Source of the DNA: Armatimonadota bacterium
GTDB taxonomy: Bacteria; Armatimonadota; UBA5829; DTLH01
Assembly: GCA_039680575.1 (NCBI GenBank)
Contig: JBDKSP010000011.1
Location: forward strand, 7,861 to 71,860
Direction of reading: 5' to 3'
DNA: 64,000 bases
The position numbers and the translations under genes were made by a program. Below the pieces are notes generated by a model, which had not been told where the DNA came from, ran no database searches, and worked only from the letters and a program-made list of their open reading frames with translations. Shown here in pieces: positions 18,121 to 37,627 of this stretch; the stretch's first letter is position 1; each line of letters starts with the position of its first letter.

Positions 18121-18123
18121 GCA

Positions 18124-18813: not shown

Positions 18814-18814
18814 A

Positions 18815-20750: not shown

Positions 20751-21364
20751 TGTATTTGTCCATGCTTCAGCTCAACCCGCGCTGTAAACAGGTGCAGTCT
20801 GAGATTTACGACCCTTATCAGATGCACCGCACACTCTGTAAGGCGTTCGGGGATGATGAGGAATCCTGGAAGAACGCGAGAGTGCTCTTCCGTGTAGATG
20901 AAACGAACGGAGGCTGCAAACTCTGCGCGTTGGTGCAGTCGAAATTGCGCCCCGATTGGACGAAACTGACTGTTCCCGGCAATTACCAGGTCGATGAGCC
21001 TAAATTGAAGGAAGTCCAGTTCGCTCTTGAAACAGGCCAGAGGTTGGGCTTCCGGCTCAGGGCAAATCCGACCGTAAAGCGCGATGGAAAGCGTGAAGGG
21101 CTCTATAAAGAGGAAGAACAATATGAATGGCTGAGGAAAAAAGGCGAACACGGCGGATTTACCGTGCTGAACGCGATAGCGAGAGCGGACGGTAAGCAGA
21201 AGAGCCTTACGGCTAAGGGGAAAGACGCGGTTTTACTGTCTGTGATATTCGAAGGCATACTGCAGATAACAGACCCGGAATTGTTCTTGAAAACGCTGGA
21301 GTCAGGCATCGGTTCAGCGAAAGGGTTTGGGTTCGGGCTGCTTTCCATTGCGCCGGTGAGGTAG
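20750..21364 (+). CDS. casE: CRISPR RNA endoribonuclease Cas6e/CasE
   Basis: MYLSMLQLNPRCKQ..YQMHRTL parallels the E. coli CasE N-terminus. The C-terminus is glycine-rich (GFGFGLLSI). Length 204 aa. Confidence 0.9.
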   Translation: MYLSMLQLNPRCKQVQSEIYDPYQMHRTLCKAFGDDEESWKNARVLFRVDETNGGCKLCALVQSKLRPDWTKLTVPGNYQVDEPKLKEVQFALETGQRLGFRLRANPTVKRDGKREGLYKEEEQYEWLRKKGEHGGFTVLNAIARADGKQKSLTAKGKDAVLLSVIFEGILQITDPELFLKTLESGIGSAKGFGFGLLSIAPVR

Positions 21365-21368
21365 TATT

Positions 21369-22322
21369 ATGACTCGTGATACTAAACTCAAAGACTTGCA
21401 CCTGCTGCCCAAGATCAAGGACTCGCTTTCGTTTCTGTATGTAGAGCATGCGAAGATAGATAAACATGATCAAGCCATAGCTATACATGACGCTGATAGC
21501 ATGACGCCTGTACCGGTGGCTAGCCTGGCTGTTTTGATGCTCGGTCCGGGAACGACGATCACGCATGCAGCCATCAATGCTCTGGCAGACAATAATTGCC
21601 TTGTAATATGGTGCGGAGAGGAAAATGTGCGGTTCTATGCCTGCGGGATAGGAGGCACGAGAAGCGCAAATCGACTGTTGAGGCAGGCAAGGCTCGCTTC
21701 AAGCGAAACAAGCCGTCTTCAAGTCGTGAAAAGAATGTACAGGATGCGCTTTGAAGAGGAAATTCCAGAGGAAACCACGGTCGATGCGTTAAGAGGTATG
21801 GAAGGCGCAAGAGTAAGACAGGCTTATTCCAGGCTGAGCGCAGAGACCGGTGTTGACTGGAATGGTAGAAATTACGACAGGCAAAACTGGCAAGCTGCCG
21901 ATGTGATAAATCGCGCAATATCGGCAGCGAATTCCTGTCTTTACGGGCTGTGCCACGCCGCGATACTATCGGCTGGGTACAGCCCGGCTATCGGTTTTAT
22001 TCATACGGGAAAGCAGTTGTCGTTCGTCTATGACATCGCTGATCTATATAAGGTGGACTTTACTGTGCCACTTGCATTCAAAATGGCGGCAGACCCACCT
22101 GCGCAGCTTGAACGAAGTGTAAGGCTTGCCTGCCGCGATGCTTTCAAAGAGATGAAATTGGTCAGCCGTATCATTCCTGATATAAAGCTCGTTCTTGGAG
22201 AAGTAGGAGACGAGGACGAGACGAGTCTTTTTGATAGCGATGAGGCGTTACCAGCCGAGTTGTGGCTGCCATCATGGGAAGTTCAGGATAAGGTGACGGA
22301 AGATGATGGTACTGATACTTGA
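21369..22322 (+). CDS. cas1: CRISPR integrase Cas1e
   Basis: 317 aa. The conserved YVEHAKIDKHDQAIAIHD region is present. It is followed by an overlapping cas2. Confidence 0.93.
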   Translation: MTRDTKLKDLHLLPKIKDSLSFLYVEHAKIDKHDQAIAIHDADSMTPVPVASLAVLMLGPGTTITHAAINALADNNCLVIWCGEENVRFYACGIGGTRSANRLLRQARLASSETSRLQVVKRMYRMRFEEEIPEETTVDALRGMEGARVRQAYSRLSAETGVDWNGRNYDRQNWQAADVINRAISAANSCLYGLCHAAILSAGYSPAIGFIHTGKQLSFVYDIADLYKVDFTVPLAFKMAADPPAQLERSVRLACRDAFKEMKLVSRIIPDIKLVLGEVGDEDETSLFDSDEALPAELWLPSWEVQDKVTEDDGTDT

Positions 22323-22590
22323 GAGTGTTCCATCCGGATTGCGGGGTGAGATCAGCCGATGGTTGATCGAACCGAAGGCAGGTGTGTTTGTCGGGAAAGT
22401 ATCAGCCATGGTGCGCGATAAGCTGTGGCAGAAAGCCTGCGAGCATTCTAAAGGGGGTGGGGTAACTATGATATATAGCACAAATAATGAACAGGGATAT
22501 ACATTTAGGACGTTTGGTGAAACATCGCGTTCTATTGTTGACTGGGAAGGCTTGATGCTCGTGAGGATAGACAATAATTCGTCATCCTAG
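22303..22590 (+). CDS. cas2: Cas2e
   Basis: 95 aa, overlapping cas1 by 20 bp. The stop codon is 1 bp from the first CRISPR repeat. Confidence 0.9.
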   Translation: MMVLILESVPSGLRGEISRWLIEPKAGVFVGKVSAMVRDKLWQKACEHSKGGGVTMIYSTNNEQGYTFRTFGETSRSIVDWEGLMLVRIDNNSSS

Positions 22591-22591
22591 A

Positions 22592-24145
22592 GTATTCCCC
22601 ACACACGTGGGGGTGAACCGCGGAGTTGCAGCGGCAAATGGCACAGATACAGGTATTCCCCACACACGTGGGGGTGAACCGCATTGGAATCGCGCTGTGC
22701 GGCGGCCACAAAAGTATTCCCCACACACGTGGGGGTGAACCGAGCCTCCAGAACCCATCCCACAGCAGTTACGAGTATTCCCCACACACGTGGGGGTGAA
22801 CCGATGTTTTCATTTCCCCTGCTCCTCCTTCAGATGTATTCCCCACACACGTGGGGGTGAACCGTTTATGCAGGCTACGGCCGATCTTTCCGCTGGGTAT
22901 TCCCCACACACGTGGGGGTGAACCGGGTCAATTCCTCATTTTCACGCACTAGTGATTGTATTCCCCACACACGTGGGGGTGAACCGGCCTTGAGCACTGC
23001 TGTTTCGAGTTCTGCCCTGTATTCCCCACACACGTGGGGGTGAACCGTCCGGGGTGTTGTGGTTTGTATCAACTCAGGTGTATTCCCCACACACGTGGGG
23101 GTGAACCGCAGCTCGAGCTTGCGGAAAAGCAGCAGGAGTTGTATTCCCCACACACGTGGGGGTGAACCGTCATCCGCAAACCCGATAGCGACGGTGTCGC
23201 CGTATTCCCCACACACGTGGGGGTGAACCGCCGACTGTCCGGGTAGATATGCTCTGCTATAAGTATTCCCCACACACGTGGGGGTGAACCGTTAGGGTCA
23301 CTGTAGGCACAATTCTGGCCTTGGTATTCCCCACACACGTGGGGGTGAACCGATATATTGTCCGCTGAACCGTGGGACGACAGCGTATTCCCCACACACG
23401 TGGGGGTGAACCGAACATACTTGCCGTTGACCATCCCCCAGCCGTGTATTCCCCACACACGTGGGGGTGAACCGAACTGTGCAGGGTATTGGATCGCCGG
23501 CGTCACGTATTCCCCACACACGTGGGGGTGAACCGGGGAGACAGAATCATGAACGAGCAAATACACAGTATTCCCCACACACGTGGGGGTGAACCGGTTC
23601 GCAGGTGGTTTCACGCATAAACTCAACCGTATTCCCCACACACGTGGGGGTGAACCGGGTCGCCACTCTTTCTGGCATTCAGCCGGTCAGTATTCCCCAC
23701 ACACGTGGGGGTGAACCGCAGTGCTCCCTGAGTTCCAGCGAAGCACCGTCGTATTCCCCACACACGTGGGGGTGAACCGGGAGTGCGGTGAACCCGCTGC
23801 CCCTCCAGACTGTATTCCCCACACACGTGGGGGTGAACCGACTGCCGTGAGCACAGAGAACGCTAAAACCGCGTATTCCCCACACACGTGGGGGTGAACC
23901 GCGTGTCAGCATTCGTTCGCGCAGCAGTGCAGAGTATTCCCCACACACGTGGGGGTGAACCGATAGTACCGGCACTGAAATACCGGTGCTGAACGTATTC
24001 CCCACACACGTGGGGGTGAACCGGACAAGGACAAGTTCCACTGCTTGGACGCTCTGTATTCCCCACACACGTGGGGGTGAACCGATGTAAAGGCGCAAAA
24101 CAATCTACACGAACTAGTATTCCCCACACACGTGGGGGTGAACCG
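22592..24145 (+). CRISPR. Type I-E CRISPR array with 26 identical 29-bp repeats (GTATTCCCCACACACGTGGGGGTGAACCG) and 25 spacers of 32 bp
   Basis: Strict 61-bp periodicity was counted directly. The repeat shares the I-E consensus architecture (G.TTCCCC...GGGG.TAAACCG-like) with a CACGTG-containing hairpin core. It is on the same strand as the cas genes. The minus-strand ORFs in the ORF track with recurring HPHVCGEY peptides are artefacts of repeat translation. Confidence 0.97.
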
Positions 24146-24161
24146 GACGGCATTGGCTTTC

Positions 24162-26534
24162 CTAATCCCGTTGTTTTCTTCTCACTATCAGCATCCCGGC
24201 TATGAATGCGAGCGAGGAGAAATACAGGATCATTCCGGTCCGGTATGGTGTGTTCACGTACTCCATTCTTATATCATGTTTGCCTTTGGGGAGGTATACC
24301 GCCCGGAACAGGTAGTCTGCGCACAGGACTTTTACGGGTTTTCCGTCTACCCATGCCTGCCACCGTGGGTAATATACCTCACTGAAGAACAGGTAGCCGT
24401 TTGACGCCATATCAGCCTTAACATCGAGCCTGGTATCCGAGTAGGACGTAATTACTGCCCGGTCTTTTGCCGGATTGCCCGGAACCCGGCGAATTACGTT
24501 TCTGTTTTCGAGTATTATCGTCTTTTTTGGATCAAAGTCCGGCTCTTTTATCTCTTTAAGCGCTGCGTCGGGACTTTCCGCAAGTGTCGCGCTGTGAACG
24601 GTGAAAACTCTCGGAAGCCAGTTCCTGTTGTAGTAGACAAATGACTTTCCCGCGTGGATTTCCGCAAGATGGCTGCCTGTCAATCGCTTCGTGGATAGCA
24701 CATACTTTACGTTGAGCAGGCCGACCAAAGGGGAATCATGCCGGGTAATATCAGCGCTCACTCCGACATACGCAGGCGTGTTCTGGATAGCTCCTGCGTA
24801 GGCTGCGTAACGGCCTATTGAAGTGGGATAATAGCCGTTGACGCTCTCCAGCCCGTCAAAAACCCCCTGGGCGTATTGAAATGAGTCCGTGTCCATAGGA
24901 AGTATGCGGAAGCGGTCGCTGTCGGCTTTGATGATATTTATCGCCATTCTGTCCCCGGAAGTATAGAATTTCCGCGCGTTTGTGGTGAAAAGCAGCGGAT
25001 CGGCATAAAACCACAGGTCGATAAACGATAATGCGATGAGTGCGGTCGCGGCGGCATTAAGACTGATCCATTTTCGCGTAAGAGCAGTGACTGCTAGAGT
25101 CCCTAGCGCAATAAGCGCCGCAGTCCAGGCAAGTCCCGATAGCTGCATCGCATAAAGTCCTGCCAGTTTGCCCATAACGGCTTCGGGGTTGCTCCTGGTA
25201 GAGCCGATAATGCGTTCGGCGTGCGATAATATAATGCCTTTTGCCGCCCACCAGGCCACGAGGGAGATAATTACGGCGAGAAACGAGAAAGCCATGACCT
25301 TCCTGGCCAGCACAGCCTTGCCTTGTGCGTTTTGCGTCTCCGGTTCGATGGCAGCGAGTCGCGGAGACCTGAGCCTGACCGATGATGAGATCACTATATC
25401 AGTTCCGTAAGCCGCAAGCCCCGCCATTGCGAATGTATAGAGGTAAAGTATCTTGCTTGGAGCCCGGATCATACTGAAACCGGGGATTTTGTATATCAAT
25501 TTGAAGAACGGAGTATAATCACCGAGCGCGATCAGGATAGATAAAATGGCAAGCGCCTTGAAATATCCCGCGCGGGAGTCACGCATACCGAAAAATGCGA
25601 TGATAGCGAGAATGAACGGCAGAATGCCGATGAACATCGATCCGTCCCAGTAAAGCGCGCCGAAAGCGGAGTTTTCCTGCACCGGGCTGCCCCAGAACGA
25701 GGGCGCTATAGCAGTGACGAGCTGTGCAGGAGCGAGCGAAAACGAGGATGCGAAGCTGTAGTCCGTGCCGCCTCCACGGTTGGAAAGCGCTGTTGATTCT
25801 AAAAACTGCAGGATATATGGAGAGGATATAAAAAACGTGAAAAGAAAGGCTATTACAGCGAGACCAGCGTAAACCGGGACCAGGTTGAGCTTTCGTTCTT
25901 TGGCAACCATCGGCAAAACGCGCCAGATAAAGAAGATGGCCATAGCCAGCCCGGTGTAGTAGACATATTGTGGGTGCAGCCCAAGCAGTTGAAACCCCAG
26001 GACCACACCGGTCAGAGCAGCATACCGGAACTGCCTTGTCTCGACAGCTTTGTCAAGGAACAGAAACGTGAGTGGTATCCACACGCCCGACCAGATTGCG
26101 CCGCCATGACCCGCGTATATCTTCGAGATAAAGAACGCTGAGAACCCGAAGGCCATTCCTCCGATGATGGAGCCCGTATTGCTGCGTCCGAACCTTCGCA
26201 TGAGCATGTACATAAAGACCGCGGCTCCGAATATATGGATGATATACCGCCATGTCATCTCTCTTGGGAGCGGCATTGTCAGGCACAACCAGTCCAGAGG
26301 GTAAAGAGGTATAGCGGATGTGAGAGGAAAGCCGCTCATCATATAGGGGAACCAGTCAGGTCTCACTCCGCTTTGCACAGCATGGCTGAAATACCAACTG
26401 AACGGGTAACCCTGCGTAACGATATCCATTCCGAAAATAGTACCCGGTCTGAAAATGACATTGTGGAAGATCAGCAGAGTCGAAATGGCGAAAAGCACAG
26501 CTACGGATGGACCGAAAGCAGCCTGTTTTTTCAT
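24162..26534 (-). CDS. YfhO-family GT-C-like membrane glycosyltransferase
   Basis: 790 aa with more than 12 TM helices. The C-terminal soluble domain carries the YYPRWQAWVDGKPVKV...LPKGKHDIRMEY motif characteristic of the YfhO family. It lies in a glycan locus with a GtrB-like GT2. Confidence 0.65.
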   Translation of the reverse strand: MKKQAAFGPSVAVLFAISTLLIFHNVIFRPGTIFGMDIVTQGYPFSWYFSHAVQSGVRPDWFPYMMSGFPLTSAIPLYPLDWLCLTMPLPREMTWRYIIHIFGAAVFMYMLMRRFGRSNTGSIIGGMAFGFSAFFISKIYAGHGGAIWSGVWIPLTFLFLDKAVETRQFRYAALTGVVLGFQLLGLHPQYVYYTGLAMAIFFIWRVLPMVAKERKLNLVPVYAGLAVIAFLFTFFISSPYILQFLESTALSNRGGGTDYSFASSFSLAPAQLVTAIAPSFWGSPVQENSAFGALYWDGSMFIGILPFILAIIAFFGMRDSRAGYFKALAILSILIALGDYTPFFKLIYKIPGFSMIRAPSKILYLYTFAMAGLAAYGTDIVISSSVRLRSPRLAAIEPETQNAQGKAVLARKVMAFSFLAVIISLVAWWAAKGIILSHAERIIGSTRSNPEAVMGKLAGLYAMQLSGLAWTAALIALGTLAVTALTRKWISLNAAATALIALSFIDLWFYADPLLFTTNARKFYTSGDRMAINIIKADSDRFRILPMDTDSFQYAQGVFDGLESVNGYYPTSIGRYAAYAGAIQNTPAYVGVSADITRHDSPLVGLLNVKYVLSTKRLTGSHLAEIHAGKSFVYYNRNWLPRVFTVHSATLAESPDAALKEIKEPDFDPKKTIILENRNVIRRVPGNPAKDRAVITSYSDTRLDVKADMASNGYLFFSEVYYPRWQAWVDGKPVKVLCADYLFRAVYLPKGKHDIRMEYVNTPYRTGMILYFSSLAFIAGMLIVRRKQRD

Positions 26535-26566: not shown

Positions 26567-27727
26567 TTACTTATGTGCCGGCTTCAGCAGGCCGAGCATA
26601 GTTGCGCCGATTTTGGCGGCAGTCGCGGTATTGAGCAGCATATTGGAGTAGGCCTGGTTGGCGAGAGGACACCAGCAATTGCCTTTCTTTATGTATTGCC
26701 GGATTTCATCCGCGCGCGGCGAGCGCCAGATCCTCCAGAAGTCGTAATCATAATCCGAGAGTCGTCCCATCGACTTGTCATACCCCAGTACGCAGCACGG
26801 CCATACGTCTCCATAGGGGCTGATGTGAACATTCGATATTCCTCCGTAGCAGGGCAGCACCTGTTTTCTCTCGTGCAGAATACGTACGACGAGATTGTAA
26901 TAAACGAGTCTCGATGCGCTTATCTGCTTTCCGAGCTTTCCGGCTTCTCTCAAGTGCCTGCGGCTTTCATCGGAGAAAGCCCGAATTGCCTGTTCGTAGT
27001 CATCCGCGGTCGGGGTGATCGAGTCTTCCTCGTTGAACATCTCGCTTCTCTGCTCGGCAATCTCGCTTATGTAGCTGTCCAACCCCAGAAGGTGAACGAA
27101 ACGGGCGACTTCTCTGATATTATGCACGTTATAGCTGGATATGACCGTTCCAGCGCCGACCTCCAGGTTCGAATAGCGCTCTTTCAGCTTTTTCAGCCGG
27201 TTTATGGTCTCCAGCAGCTTATCGAAGTTACCGGGGACACCTCGGATCTCGTCATGTGAGTCTCCCACGCCATCGAATGAAGGCTTGACGGTAAACATGA
27301 CCTGTCTTTTGCTTGCTTTAAGCCGTTTCAGGATATCTTCCGTCATTGCGACTATCCGGTCGGTCAGGATGGCGTTCGTCGGAGTATGGATAACCCCAGG
27401 CGTGAGCAGTTCATTAGCGAGTTCCACTATCTGAGGGAAATCTTTTCTGAGGAATGGTTCGCCGCCGCTCATATTGACAAAATAGACGTGTCCCAGGCTC
27501 TTGAAAAGCCTCTCGAAGTCTCCGAGCGTCATTTCGTCTTTCAGGTTTGTGCCGCACTCGCCGCGATACATATCCCATATATTACAGGTCTTGCATCTGG
27601 ACTGGCACATGTTGGTGACGGAAAGGGTGATGTTTATGGGACGGCCCGGAGACACCATACCCAATCGGGCCAGTTTATAGTTCATCGTCCTGGGAAGTAT
27701 GTCAGTTATCAGCGCTTTAGGGGTCAT
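26567..27727 (-). CDS. Radical SAM enzyme with a C-terminal SPASM/twitch-like Cys cluster
   Basis: CQSRCKTC is a CX3CX2C motif located about 40 aa from the chosen start. The C-terminus has PCCV and CWCP cysteines. The start was trimmed to ATG 27727, 22 bp after the upstream flippase stop; the six-frame ORF extends further to 28000. Confidence 0.7.
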   Translation of the reverse strand: MTPKALITDILPRTMNYKLARLGMVSPGRPINITLSVTNMCQSRCKTCNIWDMYRGECGTNLKDEMTLGDFERLFKSLGHVYFVNMSGGEPFLRKDFPQIVELANELLTPGVIHTPTNAILTDRIVAMTEDILKRLKASKRQVMFTVKPSFDGVGDSHDEIRGVPGNFDKLLETINRLKKLKERYSNLEVGAGTVISSYNVHNIREVARFVHLLGLDSYISEIAEQRSEMFNEEDSITPTADDYEQAIRAFSDESRRHLREAGKLGKQISASRLVYYNLVVRILHERKQVLPCYGGISNVHISPYGDVWPCCVLGYDKSMGRLSDYDYDFWRIWRSPRADEIRQYIKKGNCWCPLANQAYSNMLLNTATAAKIGATMLGLLKPAHK

Positions 27728-27749
27728 ACCACCAACAGTTAGCCTCCGT

Positions 27750-29396
27750 TTATTCTTCAGCACCTTTACCCGGAACTGCTGAGGCGTAAACATGCCCGGC
27801 AGAAGGATTAAGCATCGATTTTGCTGAACGGTACGATTCTCTATCGAGAGAAACAGCGATGAGCGGATACGCGATAAGCGTGAGTATAGCCGATCCGAGC
27901 GCTGTAGCAAGCCCGCTCGGAAGTATGAGTGCTGCAATGGCAAACGAGGCGCCGACAGCGCATAATGAGCTGAAAAGCGGGTGTTTGAACATCTCCGCAT
28001 ATCCGCCCACAGTCATATCCAGCATCTTGACGACCTTCCAAAGCGCCATGCTTGTGCCGATAATGTAGGCACAGGTGAAAAGGACCGCAACACCAGCCGC
28101 ACCGAACTTTATCGCAACCGGATAGACAAGCGGCGCCGCGATGCCGAGCTGCAGGAAGTTAAGCCGGTACACCCACTTGGGCTCACCCATGGCCATAAAA
28201 ACGATCCCTGCTGTCGCGCCGATAGACCGGAACATCCCGTAAAACGCAAGTATTCTGAAAAGCGGTATAGCAGGAGCCCATTTTCTTCCGAAAAACCCCA
28301 GCACGAAGTCGCTTGCCGCAAGCGCCAGCCATATCGCTGCCGGGAAAGAGAGCATCGAAATGCTCTTCACGGTCCGAGTGTATGCTCGTCTCAAGGCCGG
28401 TATATCATTGTTCAGTTTCGAGTAAGTAGGAAACATCACTTTGTTGACGATGTGAGTGATATTCGTCGCGGGCAGGTTGCAGATGGTATAGGCAAGGCTG
28501 TAGTAGCCGAGGATAGTCACGCCCAGCCATCTCCCGATAGCCGCGTTGTCGATATAGAAAAAGGCAAGGAACAGGAATGTGGCTGCCATCAGCGGTTTTC
28601 CGAAACTGAGTGTGCGTTTGGCGCTTTCTTTATGAAAAGATGCAACCGGCTTCCAACCCGCGACTGTCCAGGTGACAATGGCGGATATTGTAACGCTTGC
28701 CAGATGTCCGATTACGAGGCTCCATACTCCGAGCCCTTTGTAAGCGAGCGTGATCGAAACGGCTGCATAGGAAAGACCCATCGCAAGCTCCGGCAGCGCC
28801 CGCCTTTTGAACTCAAGGTCTTTTTCCAGAAGAGTCGAAGGGACTGTCGCAAGTGAAGATAAAACGACTGAAAAGCTCATTATCCTGAGCGGCCAGATGA
28901 ACGCCGGTCCGCCGAACACCATTGAGATAAGCGGGCTCGCTGCATAGATCACAGCCCATGCGCTGAAGCCGAATATTGCGCTCATCAGAAATGTCGTTTC
29001 GGCGTTTTTCTGCACATCGGTCTTATGGTAGATAAGCGCCTGGCCGAATCCAAGGTCGCGGAAGAGTGTCAGCGCGGTTACGATCATTGTCCCAAGTGCG
29101 AACAGCCCGAATACGGATGGAGCCAGCAGCCGTGCAAGCACGATTGTCACCAGAAACTGCATTATCCTGACGGTAATCGCGCCTGTAAACGTCCAGCCGA
29201 CTCCGGTAATTACGTTTCTGCCAATAGTTTTTTTCATATAGTCCGCCTGATAGTCAGTGTCGTTGTGTTTTGGAATCTGTTCGATCTTGAGCCGGTCGGC
29301 TAACGTCGCCATGAGATGCCGCTCAATGAATCCTGCAGCGCCTGTTACGAGCGTTTTTATTTTCCGAAAGCAGTTACCGCCAGACTCCTGCGGCAA
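27750..29396 (-). CDS. MOP-superfamily polysaccharide flippase (Wzx-like)
   Basis: 548 aa with about 12-14 TM helices and the usual Wzx layout. Confidence 0.7.
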   Translation of the reverse strand: MPQESGGNCFRKIKTLVTGAAGFIERHLMATLADRLKIEQIPKHNDTDYQADYMKKTIGRNVITGVGWTFTGAITVRIMQFLVTIVLARLLAPSVFGLFALGTMIVTALTLFRDLGFGQALIYHKTDVQKNAETTFLMSAIFGFSAWAVIYAASPLISMVFGGPAFIWPLRIMSFSVVLSSLATVPSTLLEKDLEFKRRALPELAMGLSYAAVSITLAYKGLGVWSLVIGHLASVTISAIVTWTVAGWKPVASFHKESAKRTLSFGKPLMAATFLFLAFFYIDNAAIGRWLGVTILGYYSLAYTICNLPATNITHIVNKVMFPTYSKLNNDIPALRRAYTRTVKSISMLSFPAAIWLALAASDFVLGFFGRKWAPAIPLFRILAFYGMFRSIGATAGIVFMAMGEPKWVYRLNFLQLGIAAPLVYPVAIKFGAAGVAVLFTCAYIIGTSMALWKVVKMLDMTVGGYAEMFKHPLFSSLCAVGASFAIAALILPSGLATALGSAILTLIAYPLIAVSLDRESYRSAKSMLNPSAGHVYASAVPGKGAEE

Positions 29397-30531
29397 CTGC
29401 CGACGGCTTGTAGTCCTGCTGTCCCAGGTATACCTTTTCTACCTGCTCTATCATCCTGTCCAGGCCGAAGAGCGCAGTAACACGTTCCTTGCCTGCTCTG
29501 CCCATCGCTTCAACGCGTTCCTCTTTGAAGATGCTGTAGATCGACGATGCGATAGCGGCAGGATCATGGACAGGAACGATACAGCCGGTGAAACCATCAA
29601 TTATCGTTTCGCTGATTCCAGATACATCGGGAGCGACGACCGGCAGCCCTGCGGCCATTGCTTCAAGCGCTGCAAGAGGGTGTCCTTCCCAGAGTGATGA
29701 CATTGCGAATACATCGAACGCCGGGAGGATTTCGGGTATATCGCTTCTGAACCCTGTAAAGATAACCTTGTGAGCTATCCCCAGATCCTGCGCTAGACGT
29801 TTTACCTCAGGCAGTTCTTCTCCATCCCCAATAAGCACGAAAACTACGTCATCGAGCTGTTTATGCAGGATTGTTGCTGCCCTGACCAGATCACCCAGGT
29901 TTTTCTGCTTCGTGAACCGCGCCGCTGTCCCTACAACGCGGCAGCCGGTCGGGATCATAAGTTTATTTCTGGCGTGGCATTTACTGACGGGTTTTTCGTA
30001 TTTGGTAAGATCTACCCCGCTGTGTATGGTAGTTACGCGATAATCGGGGACTCCTTCGTCTATGGTCATCCTCCTGAGATCGCTTGACACCGTGATAATC
30101 GTGTCCGTCCAATTAGCAAGCTGCTTGTCTGACCATTTATATACATACTCAACGGGTTTTCGGACTGCGCTATATCCGTGGATGAGGTCGGTGGACATAG
30201 AGTGGACAGTATGGACGATCTTCCTGCACCCGGCAAGCCTCGCTGCGATCCGCCCGGTAACACCGGCGCGTACTCCGTTGGTATGCACCACATCGAACCC
30301 ATTTTGTTTTATGGCTTTTGCAAGGTTGATGATTGTCGGTATGTCCGGGTAGCGATGGTACTCTGCGTGTATGATGGGTATTTCTGCCGCCATGAGGTTC
30401 TTATAGAGCTTCTCATGATTGCAGGATACGGCAACCTCATGTCCTTTTTCCCTCATGCCGACCGCCAGATCGTATACATACCTCGCCTGGCCTCCGAAAG
30501 CCGGCGCGCCATCTATCTGAAGAATTTTCAT
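29374..30531 (-). CDS. Glycosyltransferase family 4
   Basis: The GT-B fold motif EGHPLAALEAMAAGLPVVA (the EX7E region) is present. Length 385 aa. Confidence 0.85.
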   Translation of the reverse strand: MKILQIDGAPAFGGQARYVYDLAVGMREKGHEVAVSCNHEKLYKNLMAAEIPIIHAEYHRYPDIPTIINLAKAIKQNGFDVVHTNGVRAGVTGRIAARLAGCRKIVHTVHSMSTDLIHGYSAVRKPVEYVYKWSDKQLANWTDTIITVSSDLRRMTIDEGVPDYRVTTIHSGVDLTKYEKPVSKCHARNKLMIPTGCRVVGTAARFTKQKNLGDLVRAATILHKQLDDVVFVLIGDGEELPEVKRLAQDLGIAHKVIFTGFRSDIPEILPAFDVFAMSSLWEGHPLAALEAMAAGLPVVAPDVSGISETIIDGFTGCIVPVHDPAAIASSIYSIFKEERVEAMGRAGKERVTALFGLDRMIEQVEKVYLGQQDYKPSAVAAGVWR

Positions 30532-30548: not shown

Positions 30549-32042
30549 TCAGTGCCTGTTTTTGATACCGGGAGCCATGACTGCCGCGATTTTGGATATA
30601 TCCTCTTTCGTTATTTCACGCATCGCAGCAAGCGCAAACGCGTAGACCGTAAAAAGGATGACGTAAGTCCCTACCAATTGAAATCCTCGTGCAGGCAGTA
30701 CTCCCGCGGCGAAATAGACCATCATCCCTGATATAATTATTCTGAAAGCGGAGACAGGCGCAATGAGTCCGCCCAGTCTTCCCGCGCAAATCGCGGCGGA
30801 TGTCAAAAGGCCGACGCCCGCCGTTGATACCGATGCGATAGCCGCTCCCGTTATCCCAAACTTGGGGATAAATACCATATTGAGCGCAAATGCTATTGCA
30901 ATCAGGATAGTAGTACCCAAAAGCGGCGTTCGTATATCGCCAATTGCCACCGATATGTTATAAAGCGCGTGAAGAAACCCGAAAAGCATCAAGCCGGCTG
31001 CAAGTATTGCAAGCGCGGGAGCCGCGGCCATGTATTTATCAGTGTAAAGCATCTCGACTGTACCTGCCGATGTGCCGGACAAGACGGCTGTGACCGGTAC
31101 CAGCAGCAGCATATGGAGCCTGAGTGCCTGGCGGACATACTGGTGTATCATTTCGTAATTATTTCTGCTTGCTGCATGTGAGATCGCGGGCAGAGTAGCC
31201 GTAGCGATTCCGATCAGTACATAAAACGGCGCTCGTGCGAGGGTATTGGCGGCTGTGTAGAAGCCGGTGCTTTCCGGCGTTTGCATAAGCGCCTTTACAG
31301 CAAACATATCTATGTTGATCAGGAGTGTAAATCCGATGGAAAGCGCCGCGGTACCGCCTGCGTAACGGATCAGCTTTTTTATAGGATATAGATCGACTTT
31401 AGGCAGTGTTCCGGCAAGTATTACGGCTACCGCAAGCCCCCCGACGGATGCGAGTATATTTCCGATGATTGCGCCTCGTAATCCGAAACCGAGCATCACC
31501 AGAAGAAGTACCGTCCCAACCTTTGAAATGGCATATGTAAGCATAGCGGCAGATTGCTTCGCATAGTTTCGCTTGCCATTCAATATAGCCGTGTAGCAAA
31601 AATAGAACGCATAGACAGGTATATCGAGAGATGCGAGCCGGACAAGCCTGGTGAGGTTCGGGTCATGAAGCAGACTTGCGATCCAGGGAGCCGCGATCAT
31701 TGCAATAACGAATAACAGCGCGCTGAAAATGAGCTGTCCACGCATCGCGGACCGGGCAATCGAAGTCATCAGGTCTTCCCGCTCTGAGCCGAATTTCCTG
31801 ATTGCATACGGGAAGCCGCCGGTCAGAGAGACTTCCATCCATATAAGAAACGCCATGACTATCCCGAACAGACCGTAATCCGCCGGTCCGAGCTTACGCC
31901 CGAGGTAAAAATGGACGACATATCCACCGATCAGGAATGCTGACTGCACTCCGACAAGTGAGATCGTTCCACGGGCAAGACTGTCTTTGCGGCTGGCAGT
32001 TATATCAGATGCTTCGACGGCCATCTGCTCCTCACATCGCAA
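30549..32042 (-). CDS. MOP-superfamily polysaccharide flippase (second copy)
   Basis: 497 aa and polytopic. It is a paralogous class to 27750-29396. Confidence 0.7.
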   Translation of the reverse strand: MRCEEQMAVEASDITASRKDSLARGTISLVGVQSAFLIGGYVVHFYLGRKLGPADYGLFGIVMAFLIWMEVSLTGGFPYAIRKFGSEREDLMTSIARSAMRGQLIFSALLFVIAMIAAPWIASLLHDPNLTRLVRLASLDIPVYAFYFCYTAILNGKRNYAKQSAAMLTYAISKVGTVLLLVMLGFGLRGAIIGNILASVGGLAVAVILAGTLPKVDLYPIKKLIRYAGGTAALSIGFTLLINIDMFAVKALMQTPESTGFYTAANTLARAPFYVLIGIATATLPAISHAASRNNYEMIHQYVRQALRLHMLLLVPVTAVLSGTSAGTVEMLYTDKYMAAAPALAILAAGLMLFGFLHALYNISVAIGDIRTPLLGTTILIAIAFALNMVFIPKFGITGAAIASVSTAGVGLLTSAAICAGRLGGLIAPVSAFRIIISGMMVYFAAGVLPARGFQLVGTYVILFTVYAFALAAMREITKEDISKIAAVMAPGIKNRH

Positions 32043-33252
32043 GGATTGCTTTTATTATTTCTTCAGGGTCCGGCGGACATCCGGGTATGTGAATGATGTT
32101 TTTCGGTATCTCCTCGTAATTTTCCAGCAGGTCGCGGGCGCAGTCGCCGCTTATCAGGATCTTCTGGTTTTTCCTGAACTCCGGCATGCGGTTTCCCCGT
32201 CCGCGTACGACATCGATCCGTTTGAAAAACATGTAGTACGCCAGTTTCGGGATGAACATCCAGTATTTCGGGGTCCTTCTGGCAAGCCTGAACGCCTTAT
32301 GGAACGCCTCATCATCCAGATGGCACGCGCGATGGTTTCTCCATACGTATAAGTTGTGGTTTTTCTTCACGTCCTGCGGCGCGGGATCGAATACGGCTGC
32401 GAGTGACTCGATGCTCATTCCCCGTACATCTGTTTCCCATCTTCCAAGTCCCAGACTGATGGCGCGTTTGATGTGCAGGACTTCTTCGGGGTCCGCTCCC
32501 ATCAGCTTTGCTCCGACGATGTCTGTTTCTACCATATTTTTACCGACCAGGAGCACCCCCATCGGTTTTGGGTGCCCCAGTATCGGTCCGTTTCCTTCCA
32601 TCGCCAGTATTCCGTCTACTACGGTCATATGCGGTCGAACTGCTCTTGCGAGCTGTGCAATCGGCTCATGCAGACCGAGCCGGTGGTACATCTGCCTGTC
32701 TTTGAACGAAAGCAGCCCCCACTGGTTCTTCATAGTGAGCGAAACGGTGGTCCGGTTGTGTGTTTTCAGCTTCGCTACATTGATGTATATGTCAGATTCC
32801 AGCATGGGAGTAGGAACGGACATATAGCCACAGTAGTAGTTTTGGAGTTCATCATCTTCATAATAATTAGGCAGGTTCCTATAGCCATAGCCGATACTGA
32901 CATTAGTTCTGAGCGCGTCGAACAGGTTCAGGAGTCGGGCGTTCTTGCGCTTGGCAAGGTCCGCGTAACCAGTGACTTGAAAAGTCTTTTGGGGGTCGAC
33001 CCCGAGCGCCGGAGCCTCCGCAATCGTGACATCCCGCACTCCCGAATCGTGCAGAAGGTCGATTATGCTTTCCACAACAACGGGATGAACGACAACACCC
33101 GTTTCCGGCGCAAAGGCCTGAACGAGGTTTACTTTGAGGACAGCCTTTCGAGCTCCATCGAAGCTGACCCCGGCTTCCTTCATCCCTTTTGCTATCTCGG
33201 ATTTGATGGCATCCAGATTGTAATGCGATACTGCGCTTAGATATACCGACAT
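32032..33252 (-). CDS. DUF362-domain protein
   Basis: The start is trimmed to MSVYLSAV so that it abuts the upstream gene's stop at 33276. The LKVNLV motif is comparable to the KPNL signature of DUF362. There is no ferredoxin-like tail in this copy. Confidence 0.55.
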   Translation of the reverse strand: MSVYLSAVSHYNLDAIKSEIAKGMKEAGVSFDGARKAVLKVNLVQAFAPETGVVVHPVVVESIIDLLHDSGVRDVTIAEAPALGVDPQKTFQVTGYADLAKRKNARLLNLFDALRTNVSIGYGYRNLPNYYEDDELQNYYCGYMSVPTPMLESDIYINVAKLKTHNRTTVSLTMKNQWGLLSFKDRQMYHRLGLHEPIAQLARAVRPHMTVVDGILAMEGNGPILGHPKPMGVLLVGKNMVETDIVGAKLMGADPEEVLHIKRAISLGLGRWETDVRGMSIESLAAVFDPAPQDVKKNHNLYVWRNHRACHLDDEAFHKAFRLARRTPKYWMFIPKLAYYMFFKRIDVVRGRGNRMPEFRKNQKILISGDCARDLLENYEEIPKNIIHIPGCPPDPEEIIKAILAM

Positions 33253-33275
33253 CTCACCCTCCAGAAAATCAGCGC

Positions 33276-34391
33276 TTATGACTTGAATGATTGCTTTATC
33301 GTTACTGCTCCATTCGGGCACATGTTTACACACATAAGGCAGCGGGCTTTGCTGCACTGTCCATAGTCCAGTTTTTCAGACTCGATGTCTATGGCATTCA
33401 CCGGACACGCGGCTGCGCAGGCATCGCAATAACTGCACCTTTTCCAGTCGATGACAGGGTGAATACCGAACCTGGAATGAAACCAGGGTATAAGGCTCTT
33501 CACTCCGAAATTTGATAAGTAATGGTCGCTCGCATAGACCGTTGCGTATAAATGCCGGTACAGGTTTTTGCGGAGTTTGCTGCTTCCGGCTGCTATATCT
33601 ACCGGCTCGACCTCATCGCCGGCTATATCGATCAGCGGGGAGCGCCCACGGGCTGCGAGCTTTAGGTGCTTTACATCCGATCTTTCAAACCCCAATAACT
33701 TCGAGGCGAACAGGTCCAGAGCGAGCATATCTGTCGATGCGGCAATTACACCCATGCTCATATATTCTCCATAGACCGCACCCGAGACCGGAATGACCAG
33801 CCCTTCCATTACCGACATTACCGGGCGAAACAGCTTGTAGAGCGCTGCGATTCCGGCATCCAGCCCCTTGGCGTGTACCTCCCGCCTGCTGCTCTTATGA
33901 AGCATACCGAAACAGTTCTTGATTGCCAGGCTCACATCGGTCAGCTTGTGACATTTCATCTTTGGGACGTTTACGATAGCTTCTGACTCTACTGCGGTCG
34001 CGGCTATCTTCACTCGCCTGATCCTTGGGTGGTCGAATGGGACTTCTATATATCTATCCTCTTCGAAGTTTACGACCTCGACCCCAAGCTGTTGGGCGAG
34101 GTCTCTTATTCCCAGGATGTCAAATGTAGTATAAGAATCATATTCAAAACCTGAACAATCGCCTATTACAGGAGTAGCGCCGGCATCTATGATTTCCTGC
34201 ACCACTGCAGCCAGAACATCGAAGTTGGTTACAGCGGCAGGTACCGGCGCGACCAGATTCGGCTTGACCAACACAGTCCAGCCGGGACGGATATTCTCCT
34301 TCAGGCCGCCCGATATCGAGATCGCTTGCCTGCAGGCTGCGACAATATTCTCCGTGCCTTCCCCGACCTTTACAACAGCTACCGTTGCCAT
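33276..34391 (-). CDS. DUF362-domain protein with a C-terminal 2x[4Fe-4S] ferredoxin domain
   Basis: TVLVKPNLV motif in the N-terminal region. The C-terminus has CSYCDACAAACP and CLMCVNMCP, which are two CX2CX2CX3CP clusters. Confidence 0.65.
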   Translation of the reverse strand: MATVAVVKVGEGTENIVAACRQAISISGGLKENIRPGWTVLVKPNLVAPVPAAVTNFDVLAAVVQEIIDAGATPVIGDCSGFEYDSYTTFDILGIRDLAQQLGVEVVNFEEDRYIEVPFDHPRIRRVKIAATAVESEAIVNVPKMKCHKLTDVSLAIKNCFGMLHKSSRREVHAKGLDAGIAALYKLFRPVMSVMEGLVIPVSGAVYGEYMSMGVIAASTDMLALDLFASKLLGFERSDVKHLKLAARGRSPLIDIAGDEVEPVDIAAGSSKLRKNLYRHLYATVYASDHYLSNFGVKSLIPWFHSRFGIHPVIDWKRCSYCDACAAACPVNAIDIESEKLDYGQCSKARCLMCVNMCPNGAVTIKQSFKS

Positions 34392-35366
34392 CTATAGGTA
34401 CCCCTGATCTATGTACCATTCGACTGTTTGCTGTATTCCGTCCGAAAGGCTGACCTGTGGTTCAAAACCTAGTGTCTGCTCTGCTTTGGATGTGTCGGAT
34501 GCATGATCACGGGTGAAAAAGTTTACCTGGTATCTGGTCAGAGGCGGCTCATGGTTGAGAATTCCCGCCGCGGCTTCAGCACCGTAAGCTGCAAGTTTCG
34601 CAAGGATAACCGGCACATTTTTGCGTGTAGACCTCAATCCAAGCGTATTGGAGATGACCTTGGCGAGTTCGAAAACCGTAACAGGCCTGGGACCTGCTAT
34701 GTTGAATATTTCACCGAATGCGGCAGGGTTCTCCATCGTGATAAGGCATCCACTGACAACATCGTCCACATAGGTAGGGTGAAGCAGGCTTCTTCCGCTG
34801 CCGATAAGCGGGAAACGGTCTTCCTTTATGGCTTTGAACAGCTTGAGCTTGTGCAGATCTCCCGGACCGTAAACGAAGTCCGGCCTTATTACAGTCACGG
34901 CAACATGATTATTCTTGTGATAGGCAAGCGCTGTCTTCTCTCCATCGCATTTGGTGCGCTCGTATAGCGCCGACGGTCTGTAAGGCAGGCATTCCGGCGC
35001 AACCCCGGACATACCGACCACACCGGGGGTGCTGCAGTGTATGACTTGCCGGACGTTATTCCGTTGACAGGCTTCCAGAAGGACTCTAACGGCCTGAACA
35101 TTGACTTGCCGCATCTCATCGACCTTTACCGCCTGTCCCCCGAGTTTCGCTGCCAGATTGAAAACCACATCGACATTCCGGCAGGCTGCAGAGACTGATT
35201 CAGGATCGACCAGAGAGCCTTTTTTTATCTCGACACCGTTAGAACTAAGCCTCTCATAGTTGCTGCTCTCACGCACGATAGCACGCACCTCATGTCCCGA
35301 TCTGAGGAGTGCCTGCACCAGATGTCCTCCGATAAACCCTGTAGCGCCCGTTACCAGGATCAGCAT
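34392..35366 (-). CDS. NAD-dependent sugar epimerase/dehydratase (SDR family)
   Basis: Rossmann motif LVTGATGFIGGHL and a catalytic YxxxK motif. The length of 324 aa is typical of UDP-hexose 4-epimerases. Confidence 0.85.
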   Translation of the reverse strand: MLILVTGATGFIGGHLVQALLRSGHEVRAIVRESSNYERLSSNGVEIKKGSLVDPESVSAACRNVDVVFNLAAKLGGQAVKVDEMRQVNVQAVRVLLEACQRNNVRQVIHCSTPGVVGMSGVAPECLPYRPSALYERTKCDGEKTALAYHKNNHVAVTVIRPDFVYGPGDLHKLKLFKAIKEDRFPLIGSGRSLLHPTYVDDVVSGCLITMENPAAFGEIFNIAGPRPVTVFELAKVISNTLGLRSTRKNVPVILAKLAAYGAEAAAGILNHEPPLTRYQVNFFTRDHASDTSKAEQTLGFEPQVSLSDGIQQTVEWYIDQGYL

Positions 35367-36502
35367 CCGGTACCTCCTGCTTCGCTCACAAGGCTCTCTA
35401 TAGCCTCGACAAGCCTGCTCCAGGAGAACTCTTCTCTAAAAGCTGATATATTGTCGATGAACTCCCCGGCTTTATCCTCTTCAAAGAACCTGACCACTGC
35501 GCGCGCAAGCGCGTATGAGTCCTCAGGGGACACTACGTACCCTGTTTTTCCATCAATGACGGTCTCGGGCAGCCCTCCGACGTTCGTGGTGACGACAGGC
35601 CTGTCGAACCCGTATGCGATCTGCGCGATTCCGCTCTGTGTGGCGGTGACATAAGGCAGGACAACCAGGTCTGCAGCAGAGAAATACATCCCGACGGCCT
35701 CGTTAGGGATATATTCATCCGTAATCTTGACGCAGTGATCTATCCCAAGGTCTTTTATCAGCCGAACATACTTCTCTTTACCGTCGTAGAACTCTCCTGC
35801 TATGACAAGTACGGCATTTACCGATGAAAGGATGGCTGGCATTGCCTCTATCAGATATTTCAACCCCTTATACTCCCGTACGAGGCCGAAGAAGAGTATT
35901 ACGTTCTGATTTTGGCTCAGTCCCAGTTCGCGCCGGGCAGTATCCTTCGATATCGGCTGCTTCCTAAACACCTCGTAGGTTGGGTGGCGGGCTTTCCGCA
36001 CCTGCGCATTTGGCAGAATATCCTTCAGGTTTATGGTGTCTTCTTCCGAATGAGTAATGAACATGTTTCCCTTGCCCAGGGCATATTTCGTGAAAAGTCT
36101 GACCGGTCCGCTCTTTTCGTGCGGCAGCACATTGTGGCACAGGAACATTACCTTGGTGAATTTGCGGCATAGCGCTGCTAACGACCCGAAAGCCGGTGCA
36201 AAAAACGGATGCCACCACTGTATGATGACCAATTCGGGTGAATATTCCCGTATTCTTTTCGCCGCGTGTGACCATGACAGAGGGTTCATTGAATCGACGA
36301 GCGGTTCGGCTCCTTCAACCACCAATTTTACTGCGCTTTCATCCCTTTGGGTCTTGCCGGGAAAAAGCAGCCGGGGATACTGGCGTGACATCGACACAAG
36401 CTGCACTTCATGTGACTCCGCAAGACTTTTGCAGAGTAATGCAGTGTAGTGTGCGATTCCTCCCCTGAAAGGAAATGAAGGCCCGACAACAATGATACGC
36501 AA
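35360..36502 (-). CDS. Glycosyltransferase family 4
   Basis: GT-B C-terminal domain with GGLPETVIDGKTGYVV. Confidence 0.85.
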   Translation of the reverse strand: MRIIVVGPSFPFRGGIAHYTALLCKSLAESHEVQLVSMSRQYPRLLFPGKTQRDESAVKLVVEGAEPLVDSMNPLSWSHAAKRIREYSPELVIIQWWHPFFAPAFGSLAALCRKFTKVMFLCHNVLPHEKSGPVRLFTKYALGKGNMFITHSEEDTINLKDILPNAQVRKARHPTYEVFRKQPISKDTARRELGLSQNQNVILFFGLVREYKGLKYLIEAMPAILSSVNAVLVIAGEFYDGKEKYVRLIKDLGIDHCVKITDEYIPNEAVGMYFSAADLVVLPYVTATQSGIAQIAYGFDRPVVTTNVGGLPETVIDGKTGYVVSPEDSYALARAVVRFFEEDKAGEFIDNISAFREEFSWSRLVEAIESLVSEAGGTGC

Positions 36503-36559: not shown

Positions 36560-37627
36560 CTATATCCACGGTCTGGCAGCTTCAGATTCCGGATTTTTCT
36601 TGCAGATTGCCTGTGCCGATTTGCCCGTTATCCTGCACACCTGAGATTTCTCGTCCTTGTTCTGGCGCGCGATCATCTCAGCCAGCAACCCATGGGAAAC
36701 GAACTGTACACCGAGGATCATCAAAAGGACGCCCAGCATAAGGAGCGGCCTGCGTCCTATCGCCGCGCCTCCGATCCAGATTGCGGCGAGGTATATGTTG
36801 ACTACAGTCCCGGCGAATAGAAGCATCAGGCCTAGAGAGCCGAACAGGTGAAGAGGTTTTGTGGTGTACCGGGTAATGAAGAGTACGGTCAGCAGGTCCA
36901 GCAGCCCGCGTGTGAACCTGGCTATGCCGTATTTCGACTTCCCGAACTTTCTGCTCCTGTGGTTCACTTTGATCTCAGCCACGCTGAACCCGCTTCCGAA
37001 CGCCAGCGCCGGGATATAGCGGTGAAGCTCGCCATAAATTTTGACATTCTCGATGACCTCACGCTTATATGCCTTGAAACCGCAGTTGAAGTCGTGCAGC
37101 TTCAATCCGGTGGTCATCGATGCTACTTTGTTGAAGAGCTTGGATGGAAGTGTTTTTGAAATAGGGTCCAGCCGCCTGAACTTCCACCCGGAGACCATGT
37201 CGAAACCTTCCGAAAGTTTCGAAAGGAAGTTTGGTATCTCCTTGGGGTCGTCCTGAAGGTCCGCGTCGAGGGTAAAGACAATATCACCGCTCGCTGCCTT
37301 AAACCCTTCTGTGAGAGCTGCGGCTTTACCGAAATTACGGCGCATGTATATGGCTGTGACCCGTGGATCAGTTTCACACAAGCGCGTGAGGATGTCGGCT
37401 GATCCGTCTGTGCTTCCATCGTTGACAAATATGATCTCATACCTGCAGCCAATGTTGTCCAGCGTGCTCGTTAACTCTTCATAAAGAGTTCCAAGACTCT
37501 CTTTTTCGTTGTAGAGTGGGATTACTACGGATATTGCCTTTTCCACTGCAGTTTTGTTGGACTCATCAGCGACGTATCCGGCCTGTCTCTCCACTGCTGT
37601 TGCCTCCTTGACATAAAAGAACCCCAC
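36560..37627 (-). CDS. GT2 polyprenyl-phosphate glycosyltransferase (GtrB/ArnC/CsbB-like)
   Basis: N-terminal GT-A domain (VVIPLYNE..FVNDGSTDGS..DAD) followed by two C-terminal TM helices. This is the architecture of UndP-sugar synthases. Confidence 0.8.
   Translation of the reverse strand: MGFFYVKEATAVERQAGYVADESNKTAVEKAISVVIPLYNEKESLGTLYEELTSTLDNIGCRYEIIFVNDGSTDGSADILTRLCETDPRVTAIYMRRNFGKAAALTEGFKAASGDIVFTLDADLQDDPKEIPNFLSKLSEGFDMVSGWKFRRLDPISKTLPSKLFNKVASMTTGLKLHDFNCGFKAYKREVIENVKIYGELHRYIPALAFGSGFSVAEIKVNHRSRKFGKSKYGIARFTRGLLDLLTVLFITRYTTKPLHLFGSLGLMLLFAGTVVNIYLAAIWIGGAAIGRRPLLMLGVLLMILGVQFVSHGLLAEMIARQNKDEKSQVCRITGKSAQAICKKNPESEAARPWI

Follow-up and report, generated by a model that had tools for sequence, protein, structure and literature searches.

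A twitch-like radical SAM protein family coupled to cell-surface glycan genes, with a candidate role in sugar tailoring

The gene described here lies in a 64,000-nucleotide stretch of an Armatimonadota bacterium (GenBank assembly GCA_039680575.1, contig JBDKSP010000011.1, positions 7,861 to 71,860 of the forward strand; the whole stretch is hereafter the window) and encodes a radical S-adenosylmethionine (SAM) enzyme with a SPASM-type C-terminal domain, here called rSAM. Members of its family are coupled genetically, and physically through gene fusions, to glycosyltransferases of families GT2 and GT4, to one subfamily of short-chain dehydrogenases/reductases (SDRs), to flippases and to GT-C transferases. 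We propose, with a probability of roughly 0.55, that rSAM is a cytoplasmic enzyme whose substrate is a sugar, lipid-linked or nucleotide-bound, that has yet to be flipped, and that an NADP(H)-type SDR is its probable partner. We are highly confident that the enzyme belongs to a glycan pathway rather than acting on peptides. The novelty would lie in the recruitment of a sugar-tailoring twitch radical SAM enzyme to envelope glycan assembly, a proposal in which the association is solid and the chemistry hypothetical.

Genomic context was compared across 79 non-redundant loci from at least eight phyla plus archaea, in which open reading frames (ORFs) were called and clustered by BLAST, and recurrent clusters were converted to hidden Markov models and named by Pfam and NCBIfam. 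Frequencies refer to neighbours within six genes of rSAM, and are given first for all 79 loci and then for the 39 full-flank loci with at least five genes on each side. Glycan genes of any kind occur in 94% and 97% of these loci, respectively, and glycosyltransferases of any kind in 84% and 92%. The individual families comprise GT4 (77% and 79%), extended SDRs (67% and 77%), GT2 (44% and 56%), GT-C-like proteins (PMT_2, YfhO or the c22 large membrane protein; 41% and 56%), methyltransferase-like proteins (32% and 38%), and Wzx or LPG_synthase_TM flippase-like proteins (24% and 33%). A GT4 gene lies directly upstream of rSAM in 34 of 74 loci, while the gene directly downstream encodes an SDR in 19 loci and a DUF218 protein in 17, with median gaps of 11 and 32 bp between rSAM and its neighbours. 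The Desulfobacterota core reads PMT_2, (pilin-like), GT2, GT4, rSAM, (DUF218), SDR and methyltransferase-like, and the Armatimonadota form of the neighbourhood is the operon found in the window. The GT2-GT4-SDR block also occurs in loci L001, L086 and L088, and independently retrieved contexts annotated with Pfam show the same gene set. In Desulfatiglans loci, a type IV pilin-like gene with a prepilin N-terminal methylation motif is located between the PMT_2 GT-C and GT2 genes (L053, 5140-5502; c38 in L028 and L038), which hints that the pilin may be the glycosylation target there.

Physical coupling is evident from several fusion proteins. GT2::rSAM fusions occur as P0247 (three members from different sources, all of the same length), P0249 and P0256, one GT2::rSAM fusion being encoded in an STT3-containing cluster together with PMT_2, SDR and LPG_synthase_TM, and a GT4::rSAM fusion is found in Sandaracinaceae (P0238; two NCBI accessions). 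The lipid-flippase-like membrane domain LPG_synthase_TM is fused to rSAM in a cluster of 14 members of ~702 residues, present on more than 30 contigs of Candidatus Fermentibacter (P0123). The context of this fusion (L088) is GT2, GT4, SDR, LPG_TM, YfhO and TM::rSAM, which is essentially the window operon, with YfhO directly preceding the fusion gene; the enzyme is therefore tied to the membrane. In a single sequence of 658 residues (P0131), a BenC-like FAD/NAD(P)H ferredoxin-reductase is attached to the C-terminus of rSAM; this module would give the protein an electron supply of its own, which radical SAM enzymes do not usually have. A previous sequence-only reading of the window had left the substrate between a sugar and the PEP-CTERM proteins encoded there; conserved neighbourhoods and gene fusions together favour the sugar.

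In the window, rSAM is the ninth of ten minus-strand genes running from 37627 to 24162, in the order GT2, GT4, SDR, DUF362 with ferredoxin, DUF362, Wzx/MurJ-like, GT4, Wzx, rSAM and YfhO (Table 1). Gaps of 22 bp to the Wzx flippase gene upstream and 32 bp to the YfhO gene downstream flank the gene, and neither gap contains promoter-like or terminator-like sites, the site counts being those expected from shuffled sequence. The earlier placement of rSAM in one transcript with the flippase and GT-C genes is upheld as probable. Parts of a lipid-carrier glycosylation system of the three-component type are all encoded here, namely a GT2 synthase, two MOP/Wzx flippases and a GT-C enzyme (YfhO); PMT_2 or YfhO is also present in related loci, and a YfhO gene lies 3' of rSAM in four related Armatimonadota loci (L001, L004, L005 and L012). 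The rSAM protein itself is soluble, with no predicted transmembrane segment or signal peptide. Its coding sequence of 386 codons is read from an ATG at 27727, and the stop codon ends at 26567; the mechanical ORF reaches 28000, and one gene caller places the start at 27793 (408 residues, P0001). The start at 27727 is likely because the residue equivalent to M1 is the first residue in 30 of 30 homologues and a GGAGG sequence is found 15 nt upstream of this ATG. The in-frame ATG (27793) and GTG codons in 27728-27793 overlap the end of the flippase gene, and public calls for the cluster range from 388 to 410 residues.

The domain architecture was evaluated with a close alignment of 31 homologues (51-77% identity) and a broader set of 109 diverse family representatives. 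Recognition of a CX3CX2C radical SAM motif with a SPASM-type C-terminal domain in the sequence-only reading proved correct: the motif C41-QSR-C45-KT-C48 is invariant in the close alignment and 98-99% conserved in the broader set, and both Pfam models score above their cut-offs (Radical_SAM, PF04055, 56.6 bits versus 29.5, residues 36-207; SPASM, PF13186, 31.5 bits versus 21.5, residues 293-352). The GGE SAM-binding motif is conserved likewise among the 109 representatives (G88 and G89, 100%; E90, 91%). All 31 homologues share four cysteines of the C-terminal domain, C293, C311, C351 and C353; in the 109 representatives these are 92-95% conserved, with C312 kept in only 42%. The resulting pattern, C-x12-G-x4-C followed by C-x-C, corresponds to the first half of the SPASM motif and then a cysteine pair. 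A full seven-cysteine SPASM motif (CX9-15GX4C, gap, CX2CX5CX3C, gap, C) binds two auxiliary clusters, and no CX2CX5CX3C block was found in either alignment. Conservation of only four auxiliary cysteines indicates that rSAM would bind one auxiliary Fe-S cluster, in the manner of twitch domains, and not two. The AlphaFold2 model places a beta-hairpin at 299-309 (strands 299-302 and 307-309) between C293 and C311, and a helix at 337-347 that precedes C351 and C353; the predicted structure thus has the shortened SPASM domain of twitch enzymes, in which two cysteines surround a beta-hairpin and further cysteines follow the next helix. This layout (four cysteines, beta-hairpin plus helix) matches the BtrN architecture, in which a fully ligated cluster serves electron transfer. 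By analogy, a fully Cys-ligated auxiliary cluster in rSAM would fit electron transfer in a two-electron oxidation. In one family member (P0245, 745 residues), an intein (Intein_splicing, PT-HINT) separates the radical SAM core from the SPASM domain.

Insofar as a SPASM domain recalls peptide-modifying enzymes, the possibility has to be weighed that rSAM is a peptide or protein maturase, either of the type that acts on ribosomally synthesised and post-translationally modified peptides or generating formylglycine like the anaerobic sulfatase-maturating enzymes (anSMEs), with a substrate encoded elsewhere such as a PEP-CTERM protein or an alkaline-phosphatase-family enzyme. The Pfam SPASM match fits this possibility, as do SkfB, SuiB and anSME among the best fold matches, the PEP-CTERM proteins in the window, a Phosphodiest-family gene near rSAM in 5 of 79 loci, three of which have it immediately upstream, and two sulfatases in L084, although sulfatases are only sporadic in related loci. 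However, four auxiliary cysteines rather than seven are conserved, and the protein has no leader-recognition domain, because only ~30 residues forming a single helix (3-21) precede the core. NCBIfam returned 52 weak matches with none near its cut-off (ScmE, 64 bits versus 400; AhbD, 64 versus 500; N_Twi_rSAM, 60 versus 170), all maturase and anSME-type models being far below threshold. The likeness to anSMEs and peptide maturases claimed earlier holds at the level of fold only. There is no equivalog-level match to an anSME, and scanning of window ORFs with Pfam revealed no Sulfatase domain, which agrees with the earlier statement that neither a sulfatase nor a precursor peptide is nearby. A scan for small ORFs, which the sequence-only reading had suggested as a check, covered 2.5 kb around the gene and yielded no intergenic small-ORF family that recurs beyond 2 of the 79 loci, and no PqqD-like gene is present among the recurrent neighbour clusters. 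PEP-CTERM tails (VPEP, a hydrophobic stretch and RRK) do occur in the window at 1277-1876, 1836-2558 and 57069-57764 (+), 24-30 kb from rSAM, but none lies within 10 kb of the gene in 78 related loci, and the PEP-CTERM substrate option can be set aside. A maturase function is largely refuted by this context and we regard it as quite improbable. The related suggestion of sugar C-methylation is also unlikely, as rSAM is without a cobalamin-binding or HemN-like domain, and no SPASM or twitch enzyme is known to be a methylase.

Structural and sequence comparisons likewise place rSAM outside characterised subfamilies. Foldseek searches against the PDB gave fold-level matches only (TM-score ~0.5-0.6, 14-19% identity), in which peptide-modifying (SkfB, SuiB, anSME) and sugar-modifying (DesII, BlsE, BtrN) enzymes are interleaved; BlsE has the best target-normalised TM-score, 0.67. 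PDB sequence searches with the protein and with the family profile recovered the generic N-terminal core only (SkfB, MoaA, Tes), and the C-terminal domain alone returned only chance matches. The weak matches from NCBIfam and the PDB include AhbD, NirJ and MoaA, as would be expected of a housekeeping cofactor-biosynthesis enzyme residing in the operon by chance. These models score 36-64 bits against cut-offs of 284-650, however, no heme or molybdopterin genes are nearby, and the association with glycan genes recurs in different phyla and is strengthened by the fusions, leaving this explanation with a negligible probability. The auxiliary cysteines expected from the sequence-only reading are present, in smaller number than assumed, and NCBIfam assigns rSAM to no housekeeping subfamily.

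The most specific conserved partner of rSAM is the SDR. Partner SDRs score best with the HpnA, OleD and SdmB models (143-209 bits) and lower with GalE and RmlB. All 60 partner sequences keep Y135 and K139, and 53 of the 60 carry a basic residue after beta-2 (R32), the usual signature of NADP(H) reductases among SDRs. These residues suggest that the partner SDR is an NADP(H)-type reductase, which would need a keto substrate. The association was also evaluated in the reciprocal direction, using SDR-anchored metagenome loci: all 3 loci in which the SDR reaches at least 305 bits with the partner profile contain rSAM, and none of the 77 loci with lower scores does.

Taken together, these features suggest a sequence of reactions at the membrane. 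On the inner side of the membrane, the GT2 (ArnC/PgfS-like) and GT4 enzymes would load polyprenyl phosphate with a sugar or short glycan. rSAM would cleave SAM reductively, and the 5'-deoxyadenosyl radical would take a hydrogen atom from a sugar carbon of the lipid-linked intermediate or, as a less likely variant, of the nucleotide-sugar precursor. By way of the fully Cys-ligated auxiliary cluster, the substrate radical would then be oxidised to a keto-sugar or, after loss of water, to a deoxy-keto-sugar, and the HpnA-like NADP(H)-type SDR would reduce this product, with net epimerisation or deoxygenation. Finally, Wzx would flip the tailored lipid-linked sugar and the YfhO GT-C would transfer the sugar outside the membrane. 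Action of rSAM before flipping is proposed because the protein has no transmembrane segment or signal peptide and needs both SAM and a reductant, and because GT-C enzymes act outside. Similarly, rSAM would be the source of the keto substrate since the SDR reductase needs one and no further dehydrogenase or dehydratase gene is present in the operon. The redox assignment itself, dehydrogenation or dehydration followed by SDR reduction, is tentative and may well prove wrong.

The membrane-domain fusion suggests a lipid-linked intermediate as the substrate, and we consider the choice of a lipid-linked over a nucleotide sugar to be evenly poised. Soluble tailoring of a nucleotide sugar, as by DesII on TDP-sugars, would create an unusual donor for the adjacent GT4, with no lipid carrier involved at that step. 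GT4 enzymes use nucleotide-sugar donors and are often encoded directly upstream of rSAM (the 34 of 74 loci given above), nucleotidyltransferase and UDP-glucose dehydrogenase genes lie beside the module in some loci (L084, L003), and DesII is among the top structural matches. However, the robust fusion to a lipid-flippase-like domain (14 members) is hard to explain with a soluble substrate, and the partner SDR is nearer to the lipid-acting OleD, HpnA and SdmB models than to GalE or RmlB; we judge this alternative to be unlikely. The same SDR resemblance, together with the one family branch fused to a membrane domain and weak profile matches to GDGT-MAS/Tes (PDB 7tol, E=0.0012; NCBIfam, 37 bits), could instead indicate that rSAM modifies a non-sugar lipid, either the polyprenyl carrier or the head group or chain of a membrane lipid, as do Tes or HpnH. 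Because the GDGT-MAS/Tes matches span the generic radical SAM core only, and the tightest partners of rSAM are glycosyltransferases rather than lipid-synthesis genes, modification of a non-sugar lipid appears improbable.

Several points weigh against our proposal that rSAM tailors a lipid-linked or nucleotide sugar ahead of flipping. No characterised homologue was found, and the tailoring role is read from sequence and context. The structural matches are fold-level (TM-score ~0.5-0.6), with SkfB, SuiB and anSME scoring as well as the sugar-modifying enzymes, and the auxiliary cluster is deduced from the cysteine pattern. GT-C and flippase genes were seen in only 33-56% of full-flank loci, partly since these families diverge too far for the clustering. 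The NADP(H) rule applied to the SDR is a generalisation, and the positive loci of the reciprocal SDR test number three, one of which (L101) is the contig already included as L085. It is also conceivable that the SDR just provides a nucleotide sugar and has no bearing on the rSAM product. In addition, a nucleotide-sugar substrate that the fused glycosyltransferase uses would account for the fusions equally well.

Comparison with known systems clarifies which elements of the proposal have precedent. Like rSAM, BtrN and SpeY combine a radical SAM core with a shortened SPASM (twitch) domain in which four cysteines are set around a beta-hairpin and a helix. Their substrates are carbohydrate-like, as proposed for rSAM, and the fold matches include both enzymes (4m7t, E=2e-6; 7wzv, E=1e-4). 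They are dehydrogenases of aminoglycoside or aminocyclitol pathways, encoded in antibiotic clusters rather than in cell-surface glycan operons; identity to the rSAM family is ~15% with no sequence match in the C-terminal domain, and the rSAM family is ~130 residues longer than BtrN and has a helical hairpin insert at 241-286. DesII (acting on a TDP-sugar) and BlsE (acting on cytosyl-glucuronide) share the sugar-modifying role proposed for rSAM and are among the top Foldseek matches (8hzv, E=1e-9; 7vob, E=6e-9), but at 15-16% identity, and they belong to secondary-metabolite pathways without a link to GT2, flippase or GT-C. The anSMEs have the radical SAM plus SPASM fold (4k36, E=6e-8) and a dehydrogenase-type use of auxiliary clusters, but carry two such clusters (seven to eight cysteines) and modify proteins, whereas rSAM has four cysteines, no sulfatase partner and 15% identity to anSMEcpe.

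At the level of the pathway, the described three-component systems (GtrA/B/V, Arn, CsbB-GtcA-YfhO, S. mutans Pgf and the pentofuranose systems) resemble the window operon in combining a GT2 synthase, a flippase and a GT-C enzyme. They differ from it in having no radical SAM enzyme, in lacking the one or two GT4 enzymes that the operon adds, and in their flippases, which in the window operon and its relatives are of the MOP/Wzx or LPG_synthase_TM type. The AprD4/AprD3 enzymes form an oxidise/dehydrate-then-reduce pair. Both this pair and DprE1/DprE2 resemble the proposed rSAM-SDR pair in that one enzyme generates a keto-sugar and an NAD(P)H reductase finishes the reaction to a deoxy or epimerised product, a likeness of analogy and not of shown homology; DprE1 is a flavoenzyme, unlike the radical SAM enzyme rSAM. 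Cytoplasmic sugar-tailoring auxiliaries are known, including ArnD and DprE1/DprE2. A further parallel comes from the three-component pentofuranose systems of Citrobacter youngae O2, where the choice between Xylf and Ribf as the side chain depends solely on an SDR epimerase, ORF13 (PMC11127046).

In its broadest and more doubtful form, the proposal would amount to a widespread, unrecognised envelope step, in which a twitch rSAM and a dedicated NADPH-dependent SDR act at the inner leaflet on a sugar linked to polyprenyl phosphate and epimerise it, deoxygenate it or change its carbon skeleton, so that the GT-C installs an uncatalogued sugar. Such a step would be an oxygen-independent counterpart of DprE1/DprE2-type chemistry, with a range that takes in Desulfobacterota, Armatimonadota, gut Firmicutes and DPANN archaea. 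Outside antibiotic pathways, radical SAM chemistry on sugars is hardly known, and a family that tailors lipid-linked or nucleotide sugars would be a new enzyme class for envelope glycobiology. It would also predict unknown surface sugars in many anaerobes, gut Firmicutes and archaea, provide a bioinformatic marker for such glycans in the combination of rSAM, HpnA-like SDR and GT4, and give a working role to more than 1000 protein clusters labelled only 'radical SAM protein'. More generally, a SPASM domain match alone should not be taken to mean 'peptide maturase'.

The rSAM family is large, uncharacterised and unnamed, and falls outside every curated subfamily. A 90%-clustered database holds over 2100 matching proteins with E<=1e-5 (best E=1e-264), many of them full-length at 50-60% identity and all generically named, and a profile search of 1.84 billion representatives returned 1469 clusters at 50% identity with E<=1e-30 and 6119 with E<=1e-10. 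Using two strict peptide patterns and one genome per GTDB species, 259 relatives were retrieved. Carriers include Armatimonadota (92% identity to the window protein), Desulfobacterota, Chloroflexota, Nitrospirota, Nitrospinota, Planctomycetota, Lachnospiraceae and Christensenellaceae among bacteria, and DPANN archaea and Methanophagales among archaea. Cultured carriers are Desulfosarcina variabilis Montpellier (NZ_CP159846.1, around 5,104,270-5,105,400), strain NaphS2 (ADZZ01000383.1) and Frisingicoccus caecimuris DSM 28559 (NZ_SLXA01000023.1), among others. Literature searches found no description of the family. Plasmid and phage collections yielded distant relatives only (24-29% identity). 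Relatives of 25-28% identity are flanked by glycosyltransferases on plasmids of Segatella copri (DSM 18205, L091) and Parabacteroides distasonis (L092), which are human-gut Bacteroidales replicons, and human-faecal contigs labelled 'Bacteriophage sp.' (MT836080.1), which are unannotated, carry others. A Brachyspira hyodysenteriae plasmid resembles the rSAM loci in placing radical SAM genes beside GT1/GT4 and NAD-dependent epimerase genes in a glycan cluster (PMC4267127), but these genes are analogous to the rSAM family and not homologous beyond the core. They were rejected as homologues with a best score of 35 bits against the family profile, confined to the N-terminal core. On this virulence-associated plasmid (pBHWA1, L090), none of the seven radical SAM genes in the rhamnose/glycan cluster belongs to the family.

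Table 1. The rSAM gene, its motifs and the remaining genes of the operon, with positions in the window
Feature	Coordinates	Strand	Basis
Radical SAM / SPASM (twitch-like) gene, 386 residues	26567..27727	-	Pfam; homologues; AlphaFold2 model, predicted local distance difference test (pLDDT) 88.3, predicted TM-score (pTM) 0.89
Codons for C41-x3-C45-x2-C48, radical SAM [4Fe-4S] motif	27584..27607	-	Invariant in 31 homologues
Putative auxiliary-cluster region, C293-x12-G306-x4-C311(C312) ... C351-x-C353	26669..26851	-	Pfam SPASM, residues 293-352
YfhO-family GT-C-type membrane glycosyltransferase, 790 residues, last operon gene	24162..26534	-	Pfam YfhO 47.3 bits, cut-off 28.5; weak PgfM2 match; at least six strongly hydrophobic segments plus C-terminal transmembrane segment
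Wzx/MOP flippase (Polysacc_synt_3)	27750..29396	-	Pfam 253 bits; NCBIfam MOP flippase 238.6 bits; ~11 hydrophobic segments
GT4 glycosyltransferase	29374..30531	-	Pfam Glycos_transf_1 and Glyco_transf_4
Second MOP-family (Wzx/MurJ-like) flippase	30549..32042	-	Pfam Polysacc_synt_3, Polysacc_synt, MurJ
DUF362 protein	32032..33357	-	Pfam DUF362 147 bits
DUF362 protein with C-terminal 2x[4Fe-4S] ferredoxin domain	33276..34391	-	Pfam DUF362 and Fer4
Extended SDR, HpnA/OleD/3beta-HSD type, NADP(H)-type signature	34392..35366	-	NCBIfam OleD 153 bits, HpnA 143 bits, both below cut-off
GT4 of the conserved GT2-GT4-SDR block	35360..36502	-	Pfam
GT2, polyprenyl-phosphate sugar synthase type (ArnC/PgfS/AglJ-like), first operon gene	36560..37627	-	NCBIfam ArnC 212, PgfS 146, AglJ 94 bits, family-level and all below equivalog cut-offs; C-terminal transmembrane helices at 267-319

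Among the other operon genes, the DUF362 protein with a ferredoxin domain might be an electron donor or carrier for rSAM, or might serve a separate redox step; DUF362 genes are found near rSAM in 8 of 79 loci. A gene for a GAF-domain protein (37900-39315, +) is divergent from the first operon gene, a layout repeated in the Armatimonadota locus L001, and its product may be a regulator. On the other side of the operon, the plus strand carries a complete type I-E CRISPR-Cas locus (13934-24023) with cas3, cse1, cse2, cas7, cas5, cas6e, cas1 and cas2, and the CRISPR array (~23324-24023; 29-bp repeat GTATTCCCCACACACGTGGGGGTGAACCG) abuts the 3' end of the glycan operon. Three apparent paralogous ORFs at 22875-24098 (-), downstream of YfhO, were rejected as artefacts of translating this array.

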